64,000 nt of DNA. It comes from Actinomycetes bacterium. Lineage in GTDB: Bacteria > Auribacterota > JAJCYG01. A model generated the notes under the pieces. The model was not told where the DNA came from and ran no database searches. It saw only the letters and a program-made list of their open reading frames with translations. Each line of letters starts with the position of its first letter. Position 1 is the first letter of the stretch. The stretch is taken from positions 11,458-75,457 of the forward strand of contig JAJCYG010000065.1 in NCBI GenBank assembly GCA_029263055.1, written 5' to 3'. Made by a program: the position numbers and the translations under genes. This document shows, piece after piece, positions 2,304 to 21,228 of this stretch.

Positions 2304-3362
2304 ATGGAACTGGACGCATTACTCCAGACAGTTATTGATAAACAAGCTTCAGACCTTCACCTTACAGTGAAGGAACCTCCCATGTTACGCATTCATGGAC
2401 AGCTCGAACCCATTGAAAACCTTCCCCTCTTAAATGCCAAAGATGTTGAACAATATGCTTTAAAAACAATGACTCTGGAACAACAAGCTCAAGTGATGGA
2501 ACGGGGTGGGACTGACTTTGCTTTGAATTATCAAGATAAAGCACGCTTTCGTGTATCTGTTTATAAGCAAAAAGGAAATTATGGATTGGCCTTGCGCTTG
2601 CTTCCAAATCAAAAGTTAACTTTAGAAGAGATTGGATTGTCTGAAGCGGTTAAAGAATTATTGTTTCGTCCGCGTGGTTTGATTTTAATGACAGGTCCAA
2701 CAGGAAGTGGCAAGACCACCACTTTGGCCAGTATGATTAATGTGATTAATCAAGAACGAGGCGGTCATATTTTAACGTTTGAAGATCCTATTGAATATTT
2801 GCATGAACACAAAAAGGGAATTATCACGCAACGCGAATTAGGTGACGATGTTCCTGACTTTGCCAATGCGATTCGTTCAGGGTTGAGGCAAGACCCTGAT
2901 GTGATGATGGTGGGGGAAATGCGCGACCCTGTCACCATTGAAGCGGCTATTACCGCCGCTGAAACCGGGCATGTGGTTTTTTCTACATTGCATACAACTG
3001 GCGCTGCAAAAACAGTAGATCGTATTTTGGGTGTTTTTCCACCGAGTCAACAAGAGCTGATTCGGATGCAGCTCTCAACTTCTTTATTAGCTGTGATCTC
3101 ACAAGTGTTGGTGCCCCGTTGTGACAAGCCTGGGCGTGTGGCTGCTTTTGAAATCATGATTGCCACTCCTGCGATTCAAAACTATATCCGCGAAAACAAA
3201 ACATTTCGGATCCTCTCAGACATACAAACAGGGGGTAAGTTTGGGATGATCACTTTAGACATGTCGCTGATTAATTTGTATGAGCAAAAGATTATTAGCT
3301 ATGGTGATCTTTTAGCAAAATGCCAAGATGTTGAAGCTGTGATCCAACGAGTGAAGTCGTAA
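2304..3362 (+). CDS. pilT: Type IV pilus retraction ATPase PilT-like (PilT/GspE secretion ATPase family)
   Basis: The Walker A motif LILMTGPTGSGKTTTLASMI is present, and the ~350 aa length fits PilT rather than GspE or PilB. Asp and His box regions are present. Confidence 0.75.
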   Translation: MELDALLQTVIDKQASDLHLTVKEPPMLRIHGQLEPIENLPLLNAKDVEQYALKTMTLEQQAQVMERGGTDFALNYQDKARFRVSVYKQKGNYGLALRLLPNQKLTLEEIGLSEAVKELLFRPRGLILMTGPTGSGKTTTLASMINVINQERGGHILTFEDPIEYLHEHKKGIITQRELGDDVPDFANAIRSGLRQDPDVMMVGEMRDPVTIEAAITAAETGHVVFSTLHTTGAAKTVDRILGVFPPSQQELIRMQLSTSLLAVISQVLVPRCDKPGRVAAFEIMIATPAIQNYIRENKTFRILSDIQTGGKFGMITLDMSLINLYEQKIISYGDLLAKCQDVEAVIQRVKS

Positions 3363-3950
3363 CTACTCGTCCAACCCTAAGATCTTTTTTCCTGATTCAC
3401 TGATCATGCTCGAGTTCCAGGCAGGATCCCAAACCACTTCAACGGTTGCTTTAGCCACGCCAGGAAGGCGAGCAATTTTAGATTCAGCATCACCTGCAAT
3501 GGTGGCGCCCATACCACAACCTTGAGCAGTGAGTGTCATTTTGACATGAATATCATTGTCACCACTGTCTAATTTTTGAACTTCCATGTCATAAATCAAA
3601 CCAAGGTCGACAATGTTTAAAGGAATTTCTGGATCGTAACAAGTCTTGAGTGCGTCCCAAACCCGCTCTTGGCTAAACTCACCTGCTTCAATATCTGAGT
3701 CACCTTGCAAAGCTCCTTCAGGAATCACAGTCCCTTCAGGATAGAGCGCATCCAAATCCTTATCATTAATTCGAGCCAAAGCCCCATAAGAAGGAACTTG
3801 CACAGTAATGTTTCCACCCAAAGTTTGAGTCACCATTGCTTCAGTTCCTTTACGAACTGTCAAAGGATCCCCACTTGGAATCTGAGTAATGGTTGTATCT
3901 CTAAAAAATTGAATGGTATCGCCTGCTTGTAATTCTTTATATGTGCTCAT
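3363..3950 (-). CDS. DUF59 / SufT-like (MIP18 family) Fe-S cluster assembly protein with ~90 aa N-terminal extension
   Basis: The C-terminal half matches the DUF59 pattern: DPEIPLNIVDLGLIY...V.V.MTLT..GCGMG......I..LPGV..V.V..VWDP.W....M...GK..LGL. Confidence 0.55.
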   Translation of the reverse strand: MSTYKELQAGDTIQFFRDTTITQIPSGDPLTVRKGTEAMVTQTLGGNITVQVPSYGALARINDKDLDALYPEGTVIPEGALQGDSDIEAGEFSQERVWDALKTCYDPEIPLNIVDLGLIYDMEVQKLDSGDNDIHVKMTLTAQGCGMGATIAGDAESKIARLPGVAKATVEVVWDPAWNSSMISESGKKILGLDE

Positions 3951-4020
3951 GTTTACTCCTAAAAGGTTTAAAGGTATTAAATCTAAGGTGTCCGATTATA
4001 CCGACTTCCCCCTTCCGCCA

Positions 4021-4086
4021 CAACCCCAAACCCCCCTCCTGTGGATAACCGGGGGTCAGGCTCACTTATCCACAGGTTTGGGGTTG
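4021..4086. promoter_or_regulatory. Imperfect 21-bp palindrome. The arms are 4021-4049 and 4066-4086, and each contains a perfect DnaA-box 9-mer TTATCCACA (minus strand 4040-4048, plus strand 4066-4074). It overlaps the -35 element.
   Basis: Arm 1 is CAACCCCAAACC[CCCCTC]CTGTGGATAA and arm 2 is TTATCCACAGGTTTGGGGTTG. The 17-nt spacer carries a GGGGTCAGGC motif. The element sits in the divergent promoter region between 3950 (minus gene) and 4155 (plus gene). Confidence 0.5.
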
Positions 4087-4112
4087 ATTTTATCGAGGGG
4101 GAGGGGTATAAT
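4084..4112 (+). promoter_or_regulatory. Sigma70-like promoter for the AKR/Cld-like gene: -35 TTGATT (4084-4089), 17-nt spacer, -10 TATAAT (4107-4112)
   Basis: A near-consensus hexamer pair with optimal spacing lies ~43 nt upstream of the ATG at 4155. Confidence 0.5.
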
Positions 4113-4154
4113 TTCTGCTCCTTAATTTTATAAATTTAAAGAAAGAGCTTAGTT

Positions 4155-6038
4155 ATGACAATTGATGCACAAATTCAAGAAGCTTCAAAAGATCAAACCA
4201 TTGTACAAATTGGACCTGCTGTTTTTGGGATGTGGAGTGGGGGACACTTCATGCATTTTGGCGAAGACATCGGAGAAGAGAATTTAAAAGCTCTTGTTCG
4301 TCAAGCTTACCAAAAAGGGATCCGCACTTTTATGACGGCGGATGTTTATGGCAATGGGAAGTCTGATCAAATGTTAGGTGAAGCTCTTTCTGAGTATGAC
4401 CGCAGTTCTTACAAAATTTTAGGCGCAATTGGTCATGATTTTTATACAGGTAGACGAGAAGGGGAAAAAGGGTTTCCTCGATTTACAGACCCGCGTTTGC
4501 GTGATGAATCTGAGTATGAAAATTATATTCGGATGGCAACTCAAAAATCTTTAGAACGTTTAAGGACTGATTATTTTGATGTGTTGTTTTTGCACAACCC
4601 GGATCAAATTGGTTATACCAATAAAAAGATTTGGCAAACATTTGATCAGCTGAAAAAAGAAGGCATTGTCAAGCAAGTTGGGATTGCACCTGGACCGGCA
4701 AATGGTTTTTCTTTAGATTTGATTGGTGCGTTTGAAGATTTTGAATCAAGTATTGATTGGGCCATGATTATTATGAATCCGTTTGAACCATGGCCTGGAA
4801 ATTTTGCTTTAGAACCTGCAAAGAAACATAATGTGAAGTTGTTGATTCGTGTGGTTGATTATGGCGGCTTGTTTCATGAATCAATCAAGCCAGGCGTGCA
4901 ACTTCCTCGAATGGATCACCGAAGCTTTCGTCCTAAAGGATGGATTGAAGCAGGTTGGGAAAAAATAGAGCAGGTTCGTCCTATTGCTGAGAAACATGAC
5001 ATTTCATTGCTTCAGCTCTCTTGTCAATGGAATCGGAGTCAATCTAATGTTGAAGCAGTTGTGCCGACTTTGATTCAAGAAAAAGATCCGAATGCCAAAT
5101 CATTAGAAGCTCAATTAGATGAATTAGTTGGCATTGCTGATTTAAAAACACTTTCTGAAGAAGAAGTTTCGAAGATTTCTGAGATAGGGAATAACAAAGG
5201 ATGCATGGCTCTAAAAGGAGGCTCCCGTCAGTATCAAGGACCGCCTCAAGGAGATCAATGGCACATTTCAGATAAAAATAACGATGTGGCTAAACGTTGG
5301 GGAATTGAGCCTGACCGAGATTTGTTTTATATGGAAGACCCGCGTGACTTAAGAGAAAAAGGAGCGCCTGTTCGAGGCAAACCTCAGTTTCTTGATCGTC
5401 GACTGTTTATTCAGTTCTTGGCTTTTGGCAATTGCCACAACCCTGCCGCAATTATTGATGTGATTAAAGAAAAGAAATGTGAAGCAGTTGTTTACGCCGA
5501 TGCCAATGACCCTAAAGGAATCGGGCTTGTTTTTATGAGTGAAGATCCTGACTTTTTTGTTGGAGAAAAGAACTGTTTGCTCAACCATCACGCTTTTTCT
5601 GAATTAGAAGACAAGCCAGAGTTTACGATGTTTGGCCGTACTTATTCAAGTGGCCGCGAGCCTGATTTAGAAGATTGGGTGCTTCATAAACCACGCAAAA
5701 CCGCTTTTAATCCAGATTGGCCGTGGGCGATTTGGTATCCGCTGCGTCGTAAAGGATCGTTTGAACAACTGACCCCTGCCGAACAAGGAAAAATCTTATT
5801 CGAACATGCTATGATTGGCCGCAACTACGGCAATGCTGATTATGCTCATGACATTCGAATTGCTTGCCATGGCTTAGACCAAAATGACAATGAGTTTGTG
5901 ATTGGTTTAACAGGGCGTGAATTGTTTCCGCTTTCGCACATCATCCAAACCATGCGCAAAACAAAACAGACCTCGGAATATATTGAATCCCTCGGTCCGT
6001 TTTTTGTTGGAAAAGCAATTTACCAATTCCAAAAGTAG
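4155..6038 (+). CDS. Fusion protein. The N-terminal ~330 aa is an aldo/keto reductase (AKR). The C-terminal ~290 aa is a chlorite dismutase/HemQ-like (CDE superfamily) domain.
   Basis: The AKR part shows MTADVYGNGKSDQMLGEAL, LERLRTDYFDVLFLHNPD and a GIAPGP-type region. The C-terminal part shows YAHDIRIACHGLDQNDNEFVIGLTGRELFPLSHIIQTMR, recalling the H...GLDD.DF...E..DL.....L...M pattern of Cld/HemQ family proteins. Confidence 0.55.
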   Translation: MTIDAQIQEASKDQTIVQIGPAVFGMWSGGHFMHFGEDIGEENLKALVRQAYQKGIRTFMTADVYGNGKSDQMLGEALSEYDRSSYKILGAIGHDFYTGRREGEKGFPRFTDPRLRDESEYENYIRMATQKSLERLRTDYFDVLFLHNPDQIGYTNKKIWQTFDQLKKEGIVKQVGIAPGPANGFSLDLIGAFEDFESSIDWAMIIMNPFEPWPGNFALEPAKKHNVKLLIRVVDYGGLFHESIKPGVQLPRMDHRSFRPKGWIEAGWEKIEQVRPIAEKHDISLLQLSCQWNRSQSNVEAVVPTLIQEKDPNAKSLEAQLDELVGIADLKTLSEEEVSKISEIGNNKGCMALKGGSRQYQGPPQGDQWHISDKNNDVAKRWGIEPDRDLFYMEDPRDLREKGAPVRGKPQFLDRRLFIQFLAFGNCHNPAAIIDVIKEKKCEAVVYADANDPKGIGLVFMSEDPDFFVGEKNCLLNHHAFSELEDKPEFTMFGRTYSSGREPDLEDWVLHKPRKTAFNPDWPWAIWYPLRRKGSFEQLTPAEQGKILFEHAMIGRNYGNADYAHDIRIACHGLDQNDNEFVIGLTGRELFPLSHIIQTMRKTKQTSEYIESLGPFFVGKAIYQFQK

Positions 6039-6049
6039 AGCAAAAACAA

Positions 6050-6349
6050 TTAAGCGTTGGCGTAGACTTTGTGTGAAGGTCTGCCGGCTAAGATTTGTTC
6101 TTTTCCCCAGTTGGTGACTGCGGCAAATTCTTCGGATTGAATGAATTTTGAGAACGCTTCTTTTTCTGACCATTCTGAAACAATCAGGTATGAGGTTGCT
6201 TTAGCCACATCTTTATAAAGATGTGATTTTTCATGGCCTTGCATATCTTTCATGACATTTAACACTTTTGTAAACGCATCTTCAAATGCTTGTTCTTTGC
6301 CTGGGATTACTTCGTAGTTCATTCCAATCGTTACCATAATATCCTCCAA
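6050..6349 (-). CDS. Antibiotic biosynthesis monooxygenase (ABM/Dabb) domain protein. The true start may be the ATG at 6337.
   Basis: At ~95 aa it has the ferredoxin-like ABM pattern MVTIGMNYEVIPGKEQAFEDAF...YLIVSEWSEKEAFSKFIQSEEF. IsdG-type heme oxygenases share this fold. Confidence 0.55.
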   Translation of the reverse strand: MEDIMVTIGMNYEVIPGKEQAFEDAFTKVLNVMKDMQGHEKSHLYKDVAKATSYLIVSEWSEKEAFSKFIQSEEFAAVTNWGKEQILAGRPSHKVYANA

Positions 6350-6530
6350 ATTTGCTCAGAGTGTATCAGAAAGCCAAAAATGTTCAAAATGGTATTTTTG
6401 CGTAGAAAGTGAACAAAAATGAGCGTGATTAAAAACGGGCACTTTTATAACAATTTCTAATAGAAGGGGATGGGAAAGTGAGAATTTGGCCTGCTATATG
6501 CAAATAATAGTTATGAAGCCGGAGGGTTGG

Positions 6531-7883
6531 ATGAAGAAGCAAGGAATAGTGATTTTGTTGGTCATTATGTTAGGAGTACCAGGACAGGTTAAGGCGGTTC
6601 AGTCCAACCATTTTAATGATTATTTAGATGTTGCGGCCTCTCGTTTGTCGACTTCTTCTTCAAGTCTTTTTGAGCAAACCCTTCTTGGATTTACTTATTT
6701 AGGACTGGGTGAGTGGGAAAAAGCAGAAGCACAAATCTTGATAGGAAAAGAAGTTGTTGAGAAAAATAAGAACTTGTTAACAAGCTTTAAACTTTGGTTG
6801 GCTCTGCTTTCATTTCAATTTGATTTTTTAACGGAACAAAATAAATACGGTTTGTTTGGCGAAAAACTCTGCTTAGATGTTTGTTCTCTTCCTACTTATA
6901 ATGATTTGCCTGTTATGGGAAAGAGAAAAGATATTTGGAATGTTGATTGGAGTTGTTTTGTTGCATTAGAAGATATTCGTTTTGGAATAGAAGTATTAGA
7001 TGTTGCCACTCAGCTAACTTTAAATTTAAAGAATAAAAAAACGTTTGAAGTAAAAAAACAAAAATTAATTCAAGCACTTCCATTGTTTGAGTCATTTCCT
7101 GAAAATAGTTTTTTTGTTTTTTCTTATTTAGATGATCAGTCTTCTGACATAGAAGATAAGCGCAAAAGCTATTTTTTTAATGTTTCTAATGGGCTTTACT
7201 TTGTGTCTGATCAAAGAAAAATAGCTATGCCTAAGCCTGGAAAAACTAAGAGAACTCTTGCTTACTTTGCTGGTTTAATGAGAGAAGAACAGTCAGAGAG
7301 GGCTATTGCTAAGTATGAAAAAGCTCGCCGATCGATAAATGGATTACGTCCCTTTTCTGTATGGAAAAAAGAAAATCAGCTTAAGATTTATGATCGAAGC
7401 CATCTTGCTTCATTGAATAAAAAAGAAGATTGGTTTTTTCCTGATCGTTTTAAGGATAAATTCTCTGATAAAGGATTAGCAGATATCTGTTTTGATTTTA
7501 TTAAAACATATTCTCATCCATTAAAATTACAGAAAACAGTGGTTGTAAAAGAAGAGTTAAATTCTCTGATTTTGGCAAAAATAGCTAAACGCCATCTTTT
7601 AACAGGAGAGTATAATAAAGCGGAAAGATGGGCTAAAAAATCTGTAGCTACAGATCAAGATCGTGATGCGGTTGCTTCATCATGGTTGATTTTGGGTAAA
7701 ATTTATCGTGATAAAGCGGACCATGCAAAGTCTGATTTTAAATTTGTATTAGCCGATCAATATCAAGAAAAGAGTGAGCATGCTTTTCAGACTGTGGCAC
7801 GCCACTACCCAACAGCCAGTGTGATTGATTCTAAAAGCTCGTTAAAACGAGTGGTTGAGATTATTCAAGGCCTCTACCAGTAA
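6531..7883 (+). CDS. Secreted hypothetical protein (signal peptide), AT-rich
   Basis: The start was moved to MKKQGIVILLVIMLGVPGQVKA, which has a good signal peptide and an SD GGAGGG upstream. The protein is ~450 aa with no recognisable family. Its composition is more AT-rich than the flanking genes. Confidence 0.45.
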   Translation: MKKQGIVILLVIMLGVPGQVKAVQSNHFNDYLDVAASRLSTSSSSLFEQTLLGFTYLGLGEWEKAEAQILIGKEVVEKNKNLLTSFKLWLALLSFQFDFLTEQNKYGLFGEKLCLDVCSLPTYNDLPVMGKRKDIWNVDWSCFVALEDIRFGIEVLDVATQLTLNLKNKKTFEVKKQKLIQALPLFESFPENSFFVFSYLDDQSSDIEDKRKSYFFNVSNGLYFVSDQRKIAMPKPGKTKRTLAYFAGLMREEQSERAIAKYEKARRSINGLRPFSVWKKENQLKIYDRSHLASLNKKEDWFFPDRFKDKFSDKGLADICFDFIKTYSHPLKLQKTVVVKEELNSLILAKIAKRHLLTGEYNKAERWAKKSVATDQDRDAVASSWLILGKIYRDKADHAKSDFKFVLADQYQEKSEHAFQTVARHYPTASVIDSKSSLKRVVEIIQGLYQ

Positions 7884-15441: not shown

Positions 15442-15457
15442 AAAGCCCTTTTTTTCC

Positions 15458-15485
15458 TTGTAATATATTCCAGTTTACCTATAAT
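15458..15485 (+). promoter_or_regulatory. Sigma70-like promoter upstream of rpsP: -35 TTGTAA (15458-15463), 16-nt spacer, -10 TATAAT (15480-15485)
   Basis: The hexamers and spacing are read from the sequence. It lies ~60 nt upstream of the rpsP ATG. Confidence 0.45.
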
Positions 15486-15546
15486 GCTAGAGCTTTTTAC
15501 CCCGAAATAGTGGGTTTTGAGCTACTTATATAAGGAGAAGCAAGAA

Positions 15547-17694: not shown

Positions 17695-17835
17695 TAAGTT
17701 GTTCTAACCGGCTCTCCTTCATACTCTTTTCTTAATATACTTTAATGATCTATTTGGGGTTTCATAATAAAGGGGCTTGGTGTATAATTTTTCCCCATAA
17801 CTGGAACTATTTCATTGAGAAGGTCTTATTGATTA

Positions 17836-18762
17836 ATGGCTAAACAAGTATTTGATTCAATCCAAGATGAAGTGAAAGAGCTTAAGAAAGAGCGCAATGC
17901 ATTGATTGTGGCGCACAACTATCAGTTGCCAGAGGTTCAAGATGTGGCTGACTTTGTTGGAGATTCGCTTAATCTAGCTCGCTTTGCACAAAAGACAGAG
18001 GCAGAAGTGCTCGTGTTTTGTGGGGTTCACTTTATGGCTGAAACAGCCTCAATTTTATGCCCAGATAAAACAGTGTTGTTGCCTGATTTGGCTGCAGGTT
18101 GTTCGTTGGCAGCTATGGCTGCGCCTAAGCAAGTGATGAAGTGGCGCGAAGAGCATCCAGAGGGTGTGGTGGTTGCTTATGTTAATACTTCTGCTGAAGT
18201 CAAAGCTGTGAGTGACTATTGCTGTACCTCTTCAAATGCCGAACAAGTGGTCCGTGCCATTCCTGAAGATAAAGAGATTCTTTTTCTCCCTGATTTTTTT
18301 CTAGGTAATTTTGTGAAGCAAAAGACCGGACGCAATATTCATCTTTGGAAAGGGTTTTGCGGTACTCATGCCATTATTAGTAGTGAACATATTGATCAAT
18401 TAAAAGTAGAGAATCCAAAAGCAGAATTTATCATGCATCCTGAATGTGGGTGTTCCACCAAGTCGATGCCTTATGCGGATAAAATTTTATCAACTGAGGG
18501 AATGACTAATTACGTTCACGAATCAAAATCTGAAGAGTTTATTGTTGCTACTGAAACAGGGATTTTACACCGCATGCAAAAACAAAATCCTGAGAAAAAA
18601 TTTATTGCGGCAAGCGATGAAGCTGTGTGCGGCTACATGAAGCAAATCACCTTAGAAAAAGTTGTGACTGCTCTCGAACGATTAGAACATCGAATCCAAG
18701 TTCCAGATGAGATCGCCAAAAAAGCCAAACGCGCCATTGACCGCATGATGGAAATTACCTAG
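17836..18762 (+). CDS. nadA: Quinolinate synthase A
   Basis: The ~308 aa length, the VFCGVHFMAET motif and the CGC...HPEC cysteine ligand pattern are typical of NadA. Confidence 0.8.
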   Translation: MAKQVFDSIQDEVKELKKERNALIVAHNYQLPEVQDVADFVGDSLNLARFAQKTEAEVLVFCGVHFMAETASILCPDKTVLLPDLAAGCSLAAMAAPKQVMKWREEHPEGVVVAYVNTSAEVKAVSDYCCTSSNAEQVVRAIPEDKEILFLPDFFLGNFVKQKTGRNIHLWKGFCGTHAIISSEHIDQLKVENPKAEFIMHPECGCSTKSMPYADKILSTEGMTNYVHESKSEEFIVATETGILHRMQKQNPEKKFIAASDEAVCGYMKQITLEKVVTALERLEHRIQVPDEIAKKAKRAIDRMMEIT

Positions 18763-18774
18763 TCAGCAATACTC

Positions 18775-19004
18775 CGTGTTAAAGTGTGCCTCAAAGGGCC
18801 GTTCCATAAGTGACTTGCCGCCCGGCAACTCACTTACTCCACTCATATTCGCAGACACACCCAGATAAAATTGTCTTCTTAGGCAGGGTCTCCCTCCGGC
18901 TCCGCTAACGCTACGCCTACACGAGCCCCTGTCGGAAGCCAACTTTATCCGGGCCCCTGTCTACTCAGATGCCCTTTGATGCACACTTTAACACTGCGTT
19001 TGTT
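18775..19004. repeat. GC-rich ~230-bp structured element (copy L). It is closed by a 24-bp terminal stem (18775-18798 pairs with 18981-19004) and is ~85% identical to the reverse complement of copy R.
   Basis: The terminal stem GTGTTAAAGTGTGCCTCAAAGGGC pairs with GCCCTTTGATGCACACTTTAACAC. The internal sequence aligns to the reverse complement of 19845-20030. Confidence 0.75.
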
Positions 19005-19014
19005 GGTGTTTATT

Positions 19015-19716
19015 TTAAGGGTGGGGTGAAAGAATGACTTCCTTAGTTTTTTTGCTGATTCCGGACGTATCTTCTATTTTATTATAGATAATAGCGAAAA
19101 TATTTTTGCAGTGATCAGTGATTTCTTTTTTATTACACTTTGTTCTATTTAGTTTTATTTCTTCATTTCTTATTAATTCAGGTAGGTCTGGATCTTCTAC
19201 AAGTGTTTTATTATGAGTAATGCTTAAAAAATAATAATTTTTGTATCGAGTTGATATTCCATAAACTGGATCATTCCAATCAAATGTCCTTGATTCAAAT
19301 TGTAATGGTCTACTTGTTGTGATTCCTATTTTGTTTGTTATTTCAAAAAAAACGGGTTTTTCTTTTTCAAAATTTCCAACGTAAAAGAATGTTGGATCTT
19401 TGGGTGTGTAACCGCATTGTCTAAAGTTTTTCTCTAAATCTGAAGTTAACTCATCTCTAATGCTGTTTATTAAGTAAGCTGGATTGTCTATGTAGTGGAA
19501 TTTTTTATAATAGTCTTTATACCAGTCCTGTAGGTTTTGTTCGCTTAATGAGATACCAGCGAAACCTACTAGTGCGAAGTTATTGAAATTATATACTTTT
19601 ATTTGATTGTCTTGATATCTGCTTGGACAATCTTCAGGATGCTTTATATGGGTTAATCTTTTATCGCCTACGAAAACAATATGGTTTTGAATATAAGCTC
19701 CTAGAATTAAAGTCAT
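19015..19716 (-). CDS. Hypothetical protein (233 aa), AT-rich orphan ORF flanked by the inverted GC-rich elements
   Basis: It is a long ORF with a strong AT bias relative to its neighbours and belongs to no recognisable family. Its N-terminus MTLILGAYIQNHIVFVGDKRLT is faintly reminiscent of N-terminal-Thr (Ntn, HslV/proteasome-beta-like) hydrolases. Confidence 0.5.
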   Translation of the reverse strand: MTLILGAYIQNHIVFVGDKRLTHIKHPEDCPSRYQDNQIKVYNFNNFALVGFAGISLSEQNLQDWYKDYYKKFHYIDNPAYLINSIRDELTSDLEKNFRQCGYTPKDPTFFYVGNFEKEKPVFFEITNKIGITTSRPLQFESRTFDWNDPVYGISTRYKNYYFLSITHNKTLVEDPDLPELIRNEEIKLNRTKCNKKEITDHCKNIFAIIYNKIEDTSGISKKTKEVILSPHP

Positions 19717-19832
19717 TTGTTTCTCTTTATAAATAATTATACATGAGTAAAAGGCTCTTTATATAAAGGGTTTATAACAATGTTTTATAGTTGAATGGGG
19801 TGTGGTACAATTTGGGGCTTTAGCGGAGTTCG

Positions 19833-20045
19833 GGAGTCTTTGTGAAAAGGCACCGGAGCAGACAGGGGCCCAGGGAAAGTTGACTTCAGACAGGGGCTCG
19901 TGGAGGCGGAGCGTTAGCGAAGCCGGAAGGAGACCCTGCCTAAGAAGGCAACTTTTTCTGGGTGTGGCTGCGATGATGAGTGAGTCTACCGAGTTGCCGG
20001 GCGGCAAGTCGGTTAGGGAACGTCGTTTTCACAAAGACTCCTGAA
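19833..20045. repeat. GC-rich ~213-bp structured element (copy R), in inverted orientation relative to copy L. It is closed by a 15-17 bp perfect terminal stem (19833-19849 pairs with 20029-20045).
   Basis: GAGTCTTTGTGAAAA pairs with TTTTCACAAAGACTC. The internal sequence is ~85% identical to the reverse complement of copy L. Confidence 0.75.
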
Positions 20046-20064
20046 CGGAGCGTGGACAACTTAT

Positions 20065-21228
20065 ATGAGTAAAAAAATTATTTATTTAGATCATAATGCT
20101 ACGGCGCCTGTGCGGGCTGGGATTAAAGAGGCAGTGTTGCCTTATTTGAACTCGGCTTTTGGGAATCCTTCGTCTATTCATGCTTTGGGGCGTGAGGCAA
20201 AGCGAGATTTAGAGCGGGCGCGGGAGCAAGTGGCTGGTTTTATTGGGGCGCCTTTGACTAATGTTTTTTTTACCTCGGGTGGGACAGAGTCTAATAATTT
20301 AGCTATTTTGGGGGCTGCTCGGTTTGCAAAGAAAAAGGGGAAGGGCAATCACCTTATTACAACAGCAGTGGAACATGATGCTGTTTTGACTACGTGCAAA
20401 TATTTGGAGCAGAATGAAGATTTTGAGTTAACGGTTTTGCCTGTGGATCAGTATGGCATGATTACGGTTGATCAGGTTGTTGAAGCGCTCAAGGATAACA
20501 CGATTCTTGTGAGTGTGATGATGGCGAATAATGAAATTGGAACCTTTTTGCCCATTAAAGAGATTGGAACAATTCTTAGAGAAAAAGATATTTTATTTCA
20601 TACTGATGCGGTTCAAGCAATGAATACGTACGATGTGAATGTGTCGCAGCTTCCTGTTGATTTGCTCTCTTTGTCGGGGCATAAGATTGGGGCGTTAAAA
20701 GGGATTGGGGCATTGTATGTGCGGTCTCAAGTTCGATTGCATCCTTTGCAGCATGGGGGGGAGCAAGAGATGACACTGCGTTCAGGTACAGAGAATTTGA
20801 TCGGAGCGGTTAGTTTGGGCAAAGCGTGTGAGTTAACGGCTCAAGATAAAAAAGAAAAGCGCGATCAGCTTAAACAGTTGCGTGATTGTTTGTGGAAAGG
20901 GATTCAGAGTAGTATTGAAGATGTGTCTGTTAATGGAGCCCCTGAAGCGCGGTTGATCAATACGTTGAGTGTCAGTTTTAAAGGGGCTGAAGGAGAAGCG
21001 ATTCTTTTAGCTTTAGATATGGCTGGTGTGGCTGCTTCAAGTGGTTCGGCGTGTGCGTCAGGTTCTGTTGAGTCGTCTCATGTTTTAGAAGCGATTGGTT
21101 TGCCTGAAGACTTAGCTGAAAACACAGTCCGTTTTTCATTGGGTTATTCCACAACTCAGGAAGAGATTGATCATGTGTTAGAGATTCTTCCGCAACTGAT
21201 TTCTCGAATCCGACTTGCAAATGGGTAA
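20065..21228 (+). CDS. Cysteine desulfurase (NifS/IscS class V aminotransferase family)
   Basis: The PLP lysine region SLSGHKIGALKGIGALYV and the active-site Cys loop SSGSACASG are typical of the family. Confidence 0.9.
   Translation: MSKKIIYLDHNATAPVRAGIKEAVLPYLNSAFGNPSSIHALGREAKRDLERAREQVAGFIGAPLTNVFFTSGGTESNNLAILGAARFAKKKGKGNHLITTAVEHDAVLTTCKYLEQNEDFELTVLPVDQYGMITVDQVVEALKDNTILVSVMMANNEIGTFLPIKEIGTILREKDILFHTDAVQAMNTYDVNVSQLPVDLLSLSGHKIGALKGIGALYVRSQVRLHPLQHGGEQEMTLRSGTENLIGAVSLGKACELTAQDKKEKRDQLKQLRDCLWKGIQSSIEDVSVNGAPEARLINTLSVSFKGAEGEAILLALDMAGVAASSGSACASGSVESSHVLEAIGLPEDLAENTVRFSLGYSTTQEEIDHVLEILPQLISRIRLANG

Follow-up and report, generated by a model that had tools for sequence, protein, structure and literature searches.

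An open reading frame (ORF) of 233 codons, here called ORF233, lies between nadA and a cysteine desulfurase gene in a 64,000-nt stretch of contig JAJCYG010000065.1, which was analyzed at its full length and is referred to as the window. The best explanation for ORF233 is that it encodes a very divergent, singleton homologue of the proteasome, which was gained by an insertion of foreign DNA; the probability of this reading is put at about 0.6. The N-terminal half of the product resembles the proteasome-like peptidases (MEROPS family T1) in register from the first residue on, the composition of the gene is foreign to the window, and the gene is framed by two structured elements in a segment that is missing at the same place in three relatives.

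The T1 family is defined by the residues Thr1, Asp17, Lys33 and Gly47, which form the catalytic triad and the oxyanion hole (PMC8665760). A BLASTP comparison aligned residue 1 of ORF233 with residue 1 of Escherichia coli HslV (E = 0.01), and the beta subunit of Thermoplasma was found to be collinear with it, residues 2-123 of ORF233 pairing with residues 1-111 (E = 0.27). As the curated libraries were silent, T1 profiles were built by hand and compared with ORF233 using hhalign and hmmsearch, the latter run with the option --max; the E- and P-values given refer to a single comparison. The strongest match was obtained with a profile of 18 sequences, which reached 12.6 bits in hmmsearch (E = 4.9e-6) and a probability of 91.5% in hhalign (P = 8.6e-7); none of 10,000 shuffled sequences attained the hmmsearch score. 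Smaller profiles gave 9.6 bits (E = 3.8e-5) and 64.5% (P = 6.3e-5) with 14 sequences, 6.8 bits (E = 2.8e-4) and 69.5% (P = 4.2e-5) with nine, and 6.9 bits (E = 3e-4) and 32% (P = 4.8e-4) with three; again no shuffled sequence reached the hmmsearch score (0 of 10,000 for the first two and 0 of 2000 for the last).

In the 18-sequence profile, positions 1-90 pair with residues 2-97 of ORF233, and the match always begins at residue 1-3 of ORF233 on position 1-2 of the family. The hhalign value of ORF233 (47.4) lies far outside a null distribution of 400 shuffles (mean 12.5, standard deviation 2.3, maximum 23.4), among which a best match starting in register occurred once. As natural controls, 140 ORF products of the window and its relatives were used, and their hhalign probability was at most 2.1%. 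The region matched by ORF233 is the one that also links accepted distant T1 subfamilies, i.e., the first 70-100 residues or so; in a PDB search, HslV aligned with PrcB or yeast beta2 over residues 2-69/73 only, with E-values of 1e-5 to 1e-3. A profile made of 13 phage homologues alone, most of them PPH-like, showed no similarity to ORF233 in hhalign (P = 0.23), and ORF233 therefore leans to the HslV/beta type. Judged from these comparisons, the N-terminal half of ORF233 is probably homologous to the T1 family. The preliminary description of this DNA had tentatively read an Ntn (N-terminal nucleophile) hydrolase-like, HslV-like start from the first residues and had named a profile search as a check. 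The remote match to the hand-built 18-sequence profile bears this out for residues 1-97, with the catalytic residues in register; residues 96-233 and the curated models gave no such signal.

The 18-sequence profile comprises HslV, archaeal, bacterial and yeast beta subunits as well as HslV-family proteins of phages. Its sequences were checked against PDB chains or retrieved database proteins, and the phage members were taken from phage records. The HslV of E. coli used here agrees at 175 of 176 residues and that of Thermotoga maritima at 171 of 171; yeast beta1-beta7 and the Archaeoglobus fulgidus beta subunit score about 2.1-2.3 bits per residue along their entire length and are essentially identical to their matches. 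The Mycobacterium tuberculosis PrcB equals the retrieved protein P0123, and the Thermoplasma beta subunit corresponds to P0124 of Thermoplasma sp. except for a few substitutions. CodW of Bacillus subtilis is the only member whose database match was not displayed. Of the phage HslV-family genes, four were added at first and then ten more, which are PPH-like. A search for further diversity returned homologues that were nearly all mycobacterial PrcB, and a scan of contigs gave 80 enterobacterial HslV genes of 95-99% identity.

Methionine aminopeptidase removes a methionine which precedes a threonine. The ATG of ORF233 is the first possible start downstream of an in-frame stop, with no further ATG, GTG or TTG close behind it, which leaves Met-Thr as the sole possible N-terminus. 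Removal of the methionine would expose Thr2, as the preliminary description had pointed out with a loose parallel to HslV, and in the alignments Thr2 indeed falls on position 1 of the family. Together with Asp18, Lys40 and Gly54 it occupies the key columns in the BLASTP, MAFFT, HMMER and hhalign alignments, and Gly17-Asp18 lies on Gly16-Asp17 of the family. An independent MAFFT alignment with PrcB and the Thermoplasma beta subunit likewise places Thr2, the Gly-Asp pair, Lys40 and an Ala-Gly pair on the catalytic columns. A stretch D216-T-S-G219, picked by eye, is a candidate for the Asp166/Ser169 region. The Ntn fold may extend over the whole protein. ORF233 may also be an active threonine hydrolase, with clearly less certainty than the N-terminal homology.

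ORF233 differs from the other genes of the window in every measure of composition that was calculated. Its guanine and cytosine (GC) content is 30.2%, against 40.1 ± 2.1% in 40 other long ORFs of the window, which served as proxy genes; its GC content at third codon positions (GC3) is 23.9% (34.0 ± 4.2% in the others) and an index resembling the codon adaptation index (CAI) is 0.58 (0.71 ± 0.03). It ranks lowest of the 41 genes in all three, and the AT-rich composition unlike that of the neighbours, which had been pointed out before, is thus confirmed: the composition of ORF233 is foreign. The second-lowest GC content in the window was found for a gene at 6486-7883 on the plus strand (34.4% GC, 26% GC3), which may be foreign too.

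The stop-free run in the frame of ORF233 is 247 codons long. In 5000 first-order Markov simulations of the 822-nt, 30% GC stretch that holds ORF233, the longest run was 157 codons, and the remaining five frames of the stretch carry 11-26 stops, which argues that ORF233 is not a chance open frame. Ahead of its start, a perfect TATAAT is followed by a GAGA stretch resembling a Shine-Dalgarno sequence. A consensus promoter scan flagged nothing on the strand of ORF233; this TATAAT was missed because its -35 region is poor. A match resembling a PreQ1 riboswitch was found in the 3′ end of ORF233 (19037-19077, minus strand) and was rejected as chance (17.4 bits, E = 1.5, gathering score 39).

The surroundings of ORF233 are a conserved row of housekeeping genes. 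Upstream of the insertion lie murA, ffh, rpsP, trmD, rplS, rnhB and nadA, and downstream of it a cysteine desulfurase gene (Aminotran_5), a gene for a large TPR protein and an ABC-2 transporter gene. Named relatives of NadA with 65-67% identity carry the label Candidatus Omnitrophica. An empty-site comparison drew on the loci, together with flanks of 10 kb, of the three nearest relatives of NadA, which share 86, 83 and 77% identity with it. In all three, L001, L003 and L005, the gene order matches that of the window, but the gap between nadA and the desulfurase gene measures 41, 31 and 1 nt, respectively, compared to 1302 nt in the window, where the additional DNA fills nearly the whole gap, leaving a few bases next to the nadA stop and a few next to the desulfurase ATG. 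Neither ORF233 nor a flanking element was found in the three loci by blastn, tblastn or the covariance model. The unit of left element, ORF233 and right element is therefore a lineage-specific insertion, and its presence together with the foreign composition supports horizontal acquisition of ORF233, as the preliminary description had suggested. It is plausible that the flanking elements carried ORF233 as their cargo. Both outer borders show a short direct repeat, ACTCC(G)TG, which occurs once in the spacer of a relative; it is a weak hint of a possible target-site duplication. The coordinates of all features are compiled in Table 1.

Table 1. Features of the ORF233 locus in the window.
Feature	Position	Strand	Remarks
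Lineage-specific insertion, 1302 nt	18763..20064	(.)	nadA stop to start of the cysteine desulfurase gene (Aminotran_5)
ORF233	19015..19716	minus	233 aa; N-terminus MTLILGAYIQNHIVFVGDKRLT; orphan; residues 1-97 similar to proteasome beta/HslV (T1)
Thr2 codon, putative nucleophile (Thr1 equivalent)	19711..19713	minus	on family position 1 in MAFFT and profile alignments
Asp18 codon (putative Asp17 equivalent, G-D motif)	19663..19665	minus	alignment
Lys40 codon (putative Lys33 equivalent, past a 6-residue insertion)	19597..19599	minus	alignment
Gly54 codon (putative equivalent of the oxyanion-hole Gly47, in G-F-A-G)	19555..19557	minus	alignment; family definition from PMC8665760
Candidate ORF233 promoter, perfect TATAAT	19736..19741	minus	19 nt upstream of the start; read from the sequence
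Left element, about 230 nt, GC-rich	18768..19005	minus (folded strand)	3′ of ORF233; its own 3′ end abuts the nadA stop; covariance model R1, 206 bits
Right element	19818..20058	plus (folded strand)	leader of the cysteine desulfurase gene; covariance model R1, 207.8 bits
Promoter-like TTTATA-16-TGgTACAAT, TG extended -10	19784..19811	plus	consensus match only; ends about 7-10 nt before the right element

At the junction with the insertion (18757-18762), nadA ends with ...GAAATT ACC TAG, compared to ...ATT GTT TAA or TGA in the relatives (L001 10973-10978, L003 10922-10927), and the sequence immediately upstream is conserved. By this comparison, the insertion may have replaced the end of nadA. 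Further differences were seen in the same row of genes. Between rnhB and nadA, a response regulator gene and a histidine kinase-like gene are located on the opposite strand in L001 (8633-9905) and L005 (8488-9787); the pair is missing in the window (17695-17835) and in L003, which marks another indel. In L001, GDSL-lipase and carbamoyltransferase genes (3153-6412) lie between ffh and rpsP, which are adjacent in the window (15442-15516). Diverged coding direct repeats of 70-77% identity were observed downstream in the window (29046-29237/30157-30348, 31549-31728/47860-48039 and 51580-51758/55343-55524) and are most likely paralogous genes of a polysaccharide or glycosyltransferase cluster.

The two elements flanking ORF233 form the arms of an inverted repeat (18772-18977 and 19845-20050) of 206 nt with 80% complementarity, the sole long inverted repeat around the locus in the window, so that the inverted-repeat flanks described earlier were found again. 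The left element starts 15 nt past the stop of ORF233, and in the right element a conserved ACGGAG at the 3′ end is separated by 14 nt from the desulfurase ATG. The GC content of the elements is 53-58%, in a genome of 40% GC. Each folds into a three-way junction, in which a long stem closes off two hairpins, one long and interrupted, the other short. The fold has a z-score of about -9.6 to -9.7 (-9.6 for the left copy), and the left element reaches -119.5 kcal/mol on the minus strand versus -98.8 kcal/mol on the other one.

In an alignment of the minus strand of the left element with the plus strand of the right one, all of the 78 predicted pairs are formed in both copies, and 15 of them are changed on both sides, versus 0-2 compensated pairs when the partners were slid against each other. 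Overall the copies have diverged by about 15-20%. A core of 171 nt is about 85% identical, and the closing stem is identical at about half of its positions yet fully compensated. About a dozen G.U cells make the fold strand-specific, a property that speaks for a structure of RNA, or of a single strand, which is read away from ORF233 on both sides. It is inferred that the elements act as RNA.

A direct repeat, CAGACAGGGGCYC, occurs twice in each element at a distance of 28 nt (19859-19876 and 19887-19904 on the plus strand in the right copy, mirrored in the left one), and a 7-mer resembling ACGGAGT is found on both sides of the base of each closing stem. The CAGACAGGGGCYC repeats and these 7-mers could be sites for protein binding or recombination, or could just be part of the fold.

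The elements match no described family in the collections that were searched. In Rfam, no match to the elements reached the gathering scores in the window, and matches at E ≤ 10 over 18700-20100 were at chance level. Within the window (64 kb) and within 83 kb of sequence from the relatives, no further copies were detected, and blastn against plasmids and phages returned none. A 19-mer of the core is absent from the GTDB genomes and from IMG/VR, as is a 20-mer of the hairpin from IMG/VR. The double GACAGGGGC motif gave one chance match in the JGI metagenomes, located inside a nuclease gene, and 27 chance matches in IMG/VR, all of which were rejected by the covariance model.

Several identities were considered for the elements and rejected. 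An integron attC site does not fit, as the GTT...AAC boxes come in reversed order, and conservation of the core speaks against it as well. For ends of IS200/IS605 elements or a guide RNA of TnpB/IscB, neither a corresponding ORF nor an Rfam match was found. The template and variable repeats of a diversity-generating retroelement (DGR) were dismissed, since the differences are compensatory and not adenine-specific, and integration at a tRNA or tmRNA gene was dismissed as none is present in the window. A riboswitch is not in accordance with the position of one copy, which lies 3′ of ORF233 and antisense to nadA. The elements could mark the two ends of a composite mobile unit; they could also be recombination sites or have a role as small RNAs or leaders, and by their sequence and fold they may represent an undescribed structured RNA or repeat family.

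From these observations, the following course of events is proposed. Foreign DNA of 1.3 kb would have entered the very narrow gap that separates nadA from the desulfurase gene in an Omnitrophota-like bacterium, with an AT-rich centre carrying one gene, for a very divergent T1 member of the Ntn-hydrolase superfamily. Having no propeptide, the product would be processed by methionine aminopeptidase, so that Thr2 is exposed as the nucleophile, as in HslV; Asp18 and Lys40 would complete the triad, Gly54 would form the oxyanion hole, and a loop of six residues seems to be inserted before the lysine strand. The C-terminal 135 residues have presumably diverged past recognition or form something else. 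Of the two inverted, outward-facing elements of about 230 nt that bracket the gene, the left one would form the 3′ end of the ORF233 transcript, and the right one, together with the promoter-like site, would restore the transcription of the downstream operon that was cut off from nadA.

Several results weigh against the assignment of ORF233 to the proteasome family. Searches of Pfam, NCBIfam and PADLOC returned 0 matches at E ≤ 10, and at this threshold the Pfam model of the family itself, PF00227 (Proteasome), was silent, its gathering score not being reached. A phmmer search of PDB with ORF233 gave NcdE alone (E = 0.33), which is irrelevant, and no T1 chain at E ≤ 10. Scaled to the size of Pfam, the best HMMER E-value becomes about 0.1, which is borderline, and that of hhalign about 0.02. 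The single-family P-values are also somewhat optimistic, since the T1 hypothesis had been raised by eye before it was tested. Enlarging the profile to 28 sequences by the ten PPH-like phage genes lowered the match to 9.7 bits (E = 4.4e-5) and 86% (P = 5e-6), with one of 10,000 shuffles reaching the hmmsearch score, and against the 14-sequence profile, in which ORF233 obtains 9.6 bits, PPH-like phage homologues score 34-35 bits. Residues 96-233 showed no similarity to the same T1 profiles, and the Gly-Ser129-Gly motif (Ser129) is absent.

The fold of the family is an alpha-beta-beta-alpha sandwich with strands S1-S11 and helices H1-H4, and both structure predictions for ORF233 remained at low confidence. 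AlphaFold2 reached a mean predicted local distance difference test (pLDDT) score of 31.5 for ORF233 alone and 38.4 with a shallow T1 alignment of ten PrcB and Thermoplasma sequences. A Foldseek match to Anbu (rank 26, E = 3.4) was rejected, as its query was the low-confidence model. The two elements and ORF233 may have arrived as one unit.

A word-indexed search of 5.8 billion clusters and an exhaustive HMMER scan of 1.84 billion representatives each returned ORF233 itself only, and tblastn against phage and plasmid records as well as a scan of IMG/VR found nothing. The absence of a recognisable family, which had been noticed from the sequence, thus extends from the curated models to the large collections, and within them ORF233 is a strict orphan and a singleton. 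That conservation and dN/dS cannot be drawn on for a single sequence to argue for selection counts against the assignment as well.

It is unlikely that ORF233 is a real and horizontally acquired gene whose likeness to HslV and the beta subunits is due to chance or convergence, with a role in the mobile unit, e.g., as a recombinase, transposase or accessory protein. Such a role would be in agreement with the silent family models, with C-terminal 135 residues that match nothing, with the failure of AlphaFold to give an Ntn fold even with a T1 alignment, and with the exact position of the gene between long inverted repeats, each with two CAGACAGGGGCYC repeats as possible protein-binding sites. 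However, neither the shuffles nor the natural controls come near the hhalign result of the 18-sequence profile, the four residues that define the family line up with it from residue 1 onwards, and no Pfam match to HUH, DDE or serine/tyrosine-recombinase families was obtained for ORF233 at E ≤ 10. That the frame is non-functional, being a decaying remnant in foreign DNA or an accidental frame between two small-RNA genes, is quite unlikely. The singleton status, the poorest codon adaptation in the window and the result of the promoter scan on its strand would be accounted for, but a run of 247 codons was not approached in the simulations, the other five frames are full of stops, a family-like N-terminus with intact catalytic residues is not expected of noise, and the start has a perfect TATAAT and a Shine-Dalgarno-like stretch ahead of it. 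Furthermore, an unselected AT-rich frame of such length would probably have gained several stops if the 15-20% divergence of the flanking copies arose in place.

Among the members of the T1 family are inactive subunits and a monomeric ligase that is sequence-specific (PMC8665760), and ORF233 could accordingly be a protein of proteasome fold that is not a protease. It might act as a ligase or transpeptidase in the manner of connectase, or serve as a non-catalytic scaffold as alpha subunits do. Besides this precedent, the insertion in the loop before the Lys33 strand, the unrecognisable C-terminal half and the lack of an unfoldase gene such as hslU beside ORF233 point in this direction; the complete set of Thr, Asp, Lys and Gly speaks against a non-catalytic role, and the chemistries of a hydrolase and a ligase are not separated by the present data. 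Overall, this alternative is very unlikely. The least probable of the readings considered is that the whole locus is one new small mobile or selfish module, consisting of two outward-facing structured RNAs, each maintained by compensatory changes and one having its own promoter, which would cooperate with an enzyme of proteasome fold. The RNA could act on the enzyme as a guide, scaffold or regulator, or the enzyme could promote the spread of the element or defence; such a module would differ from conventional transposons as well as from conventional protease operons.

If ORF233 is indeed a divergent proteasome homologue, it is more divergent than the 22 subfamilies reported in 2021 and is the only known copy, located in a precisely delimited insertion. 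The proteasome-like family would then retain unsampled, fast-evolving and apparently mobile branches, and a targeted profile test can sometimes place an ORFan where neither curated libraries nor structure prediction give an answer. The flanking elements stand as a lead of their own, as a strand-specific, compensated structure of 230 nt without a known family that forms the leader of a desulfurase gene, and they are the more unexplained part of the locus. The locus has no bearing on a long-standing open question, and the conclusions are limited by the single sequence.

Cargo genes between inverted repeats that resemble miniature inverted-repeat transposable elements (MITEs) are known, e.g., from integron mobilisation units, as are structured intergenic repeats of the ERIC and Correia type. 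Compared by description only, these arrangements likewise have two inverted non-coding copies around a foreign gene, at a site that is empty in relatives, a tight placement between a stop and a start codon, long hairpins and a possible promoter for the downstream gene. In contrast to MITE-like repeats, the copies around ORF233 are only about 80-85% identical, and their termini are least conserved and compensated within each copy, as would be expected if the structure, and not a set of ends bound by a transposase, were under selection. Also in contrast to them, about 12 G.U cells make the fold strand-specific, no clear target-site duplication was seen, and neither other copies nor a transposase were found within the scope of the scans.

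HslV (ClpQ) starts with Met-Thr and has no propeptide, like ORF233. The first 21 residues of the E. coli protein align with ORF233 without gaps, T1, H11, V13, G16, D17 and T21 being identical, and the K-V strand and the oxyanion motif G-F-A-G are common to both. HslV is shorter, with about 175 amino acids compared to 233 amino acids and the 6-residue insertion before the Lys33 equivalent in ORF233. Its motif G-S-G-G is absent in ORF233, and the C-terminal half is dissimilar. HslV proper is encoded next to hslU, whereas ORF233 neighbours nadA and the cysteine desulfurase gene with no adjacent hslU, and single-sequence phmmer searches of PDB and of the 1.84 billion representatives connect it to no HslV. 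Among the beta subunits of the 20S proteasome (PsmB, PrcB, yeast beta1-7), that of Thermoplasma is collinear over residues 2-123 of ORF233, and these sequences are part of the profile which gave 91.5%. Unlike the 20S beta subunits, ORF233 lacks a propeptide, an alpha-subunit partner and the Ser129/Asp166/Ser169 signature, and PF00227 does not respond to it.

Genes of the proteasome/HslV family occur widely among phages (T5-like, phAPEC8-like and jumbo phages) and were also met in an archaeal virus, with 92 and 209 records matched; examples are phAPEC8_0094 (L088) with 230 amino acids, and the Aeromonas phage 4L372D (L094) with two adjacent genes annotated as "peptidase HslV family". Divergent T1 homologues were collected by Fuchs, Alva and Lupas (2021), who defined 22 subfamilies, including PPH, AAH, CPH, DPH, RPC, WPH, PMI and FC1-5, from non-significant hits that were inspected for active-site residues (PMC8665760). 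Many features of these subfamilies, i.e., narrow distributions, a spread by phages and mobile elements, insertions in defined loops and highly variable C-termini, have been described (PMC8665760). They have tens to hundreds of members, whereas ORF233 is a singleton, and by the HMMER scan of 1.84 billion representatives and the profile of 13 phage homologues it is no detectable member of any of them, the authors' own profiles not being among these comparisons. In kind, ORF233 nevertheless corresponds to these homologues: it shares with them a low similarity, a recognition by active-site residues together with a profile, an inserted loop and a variable C-terminus.

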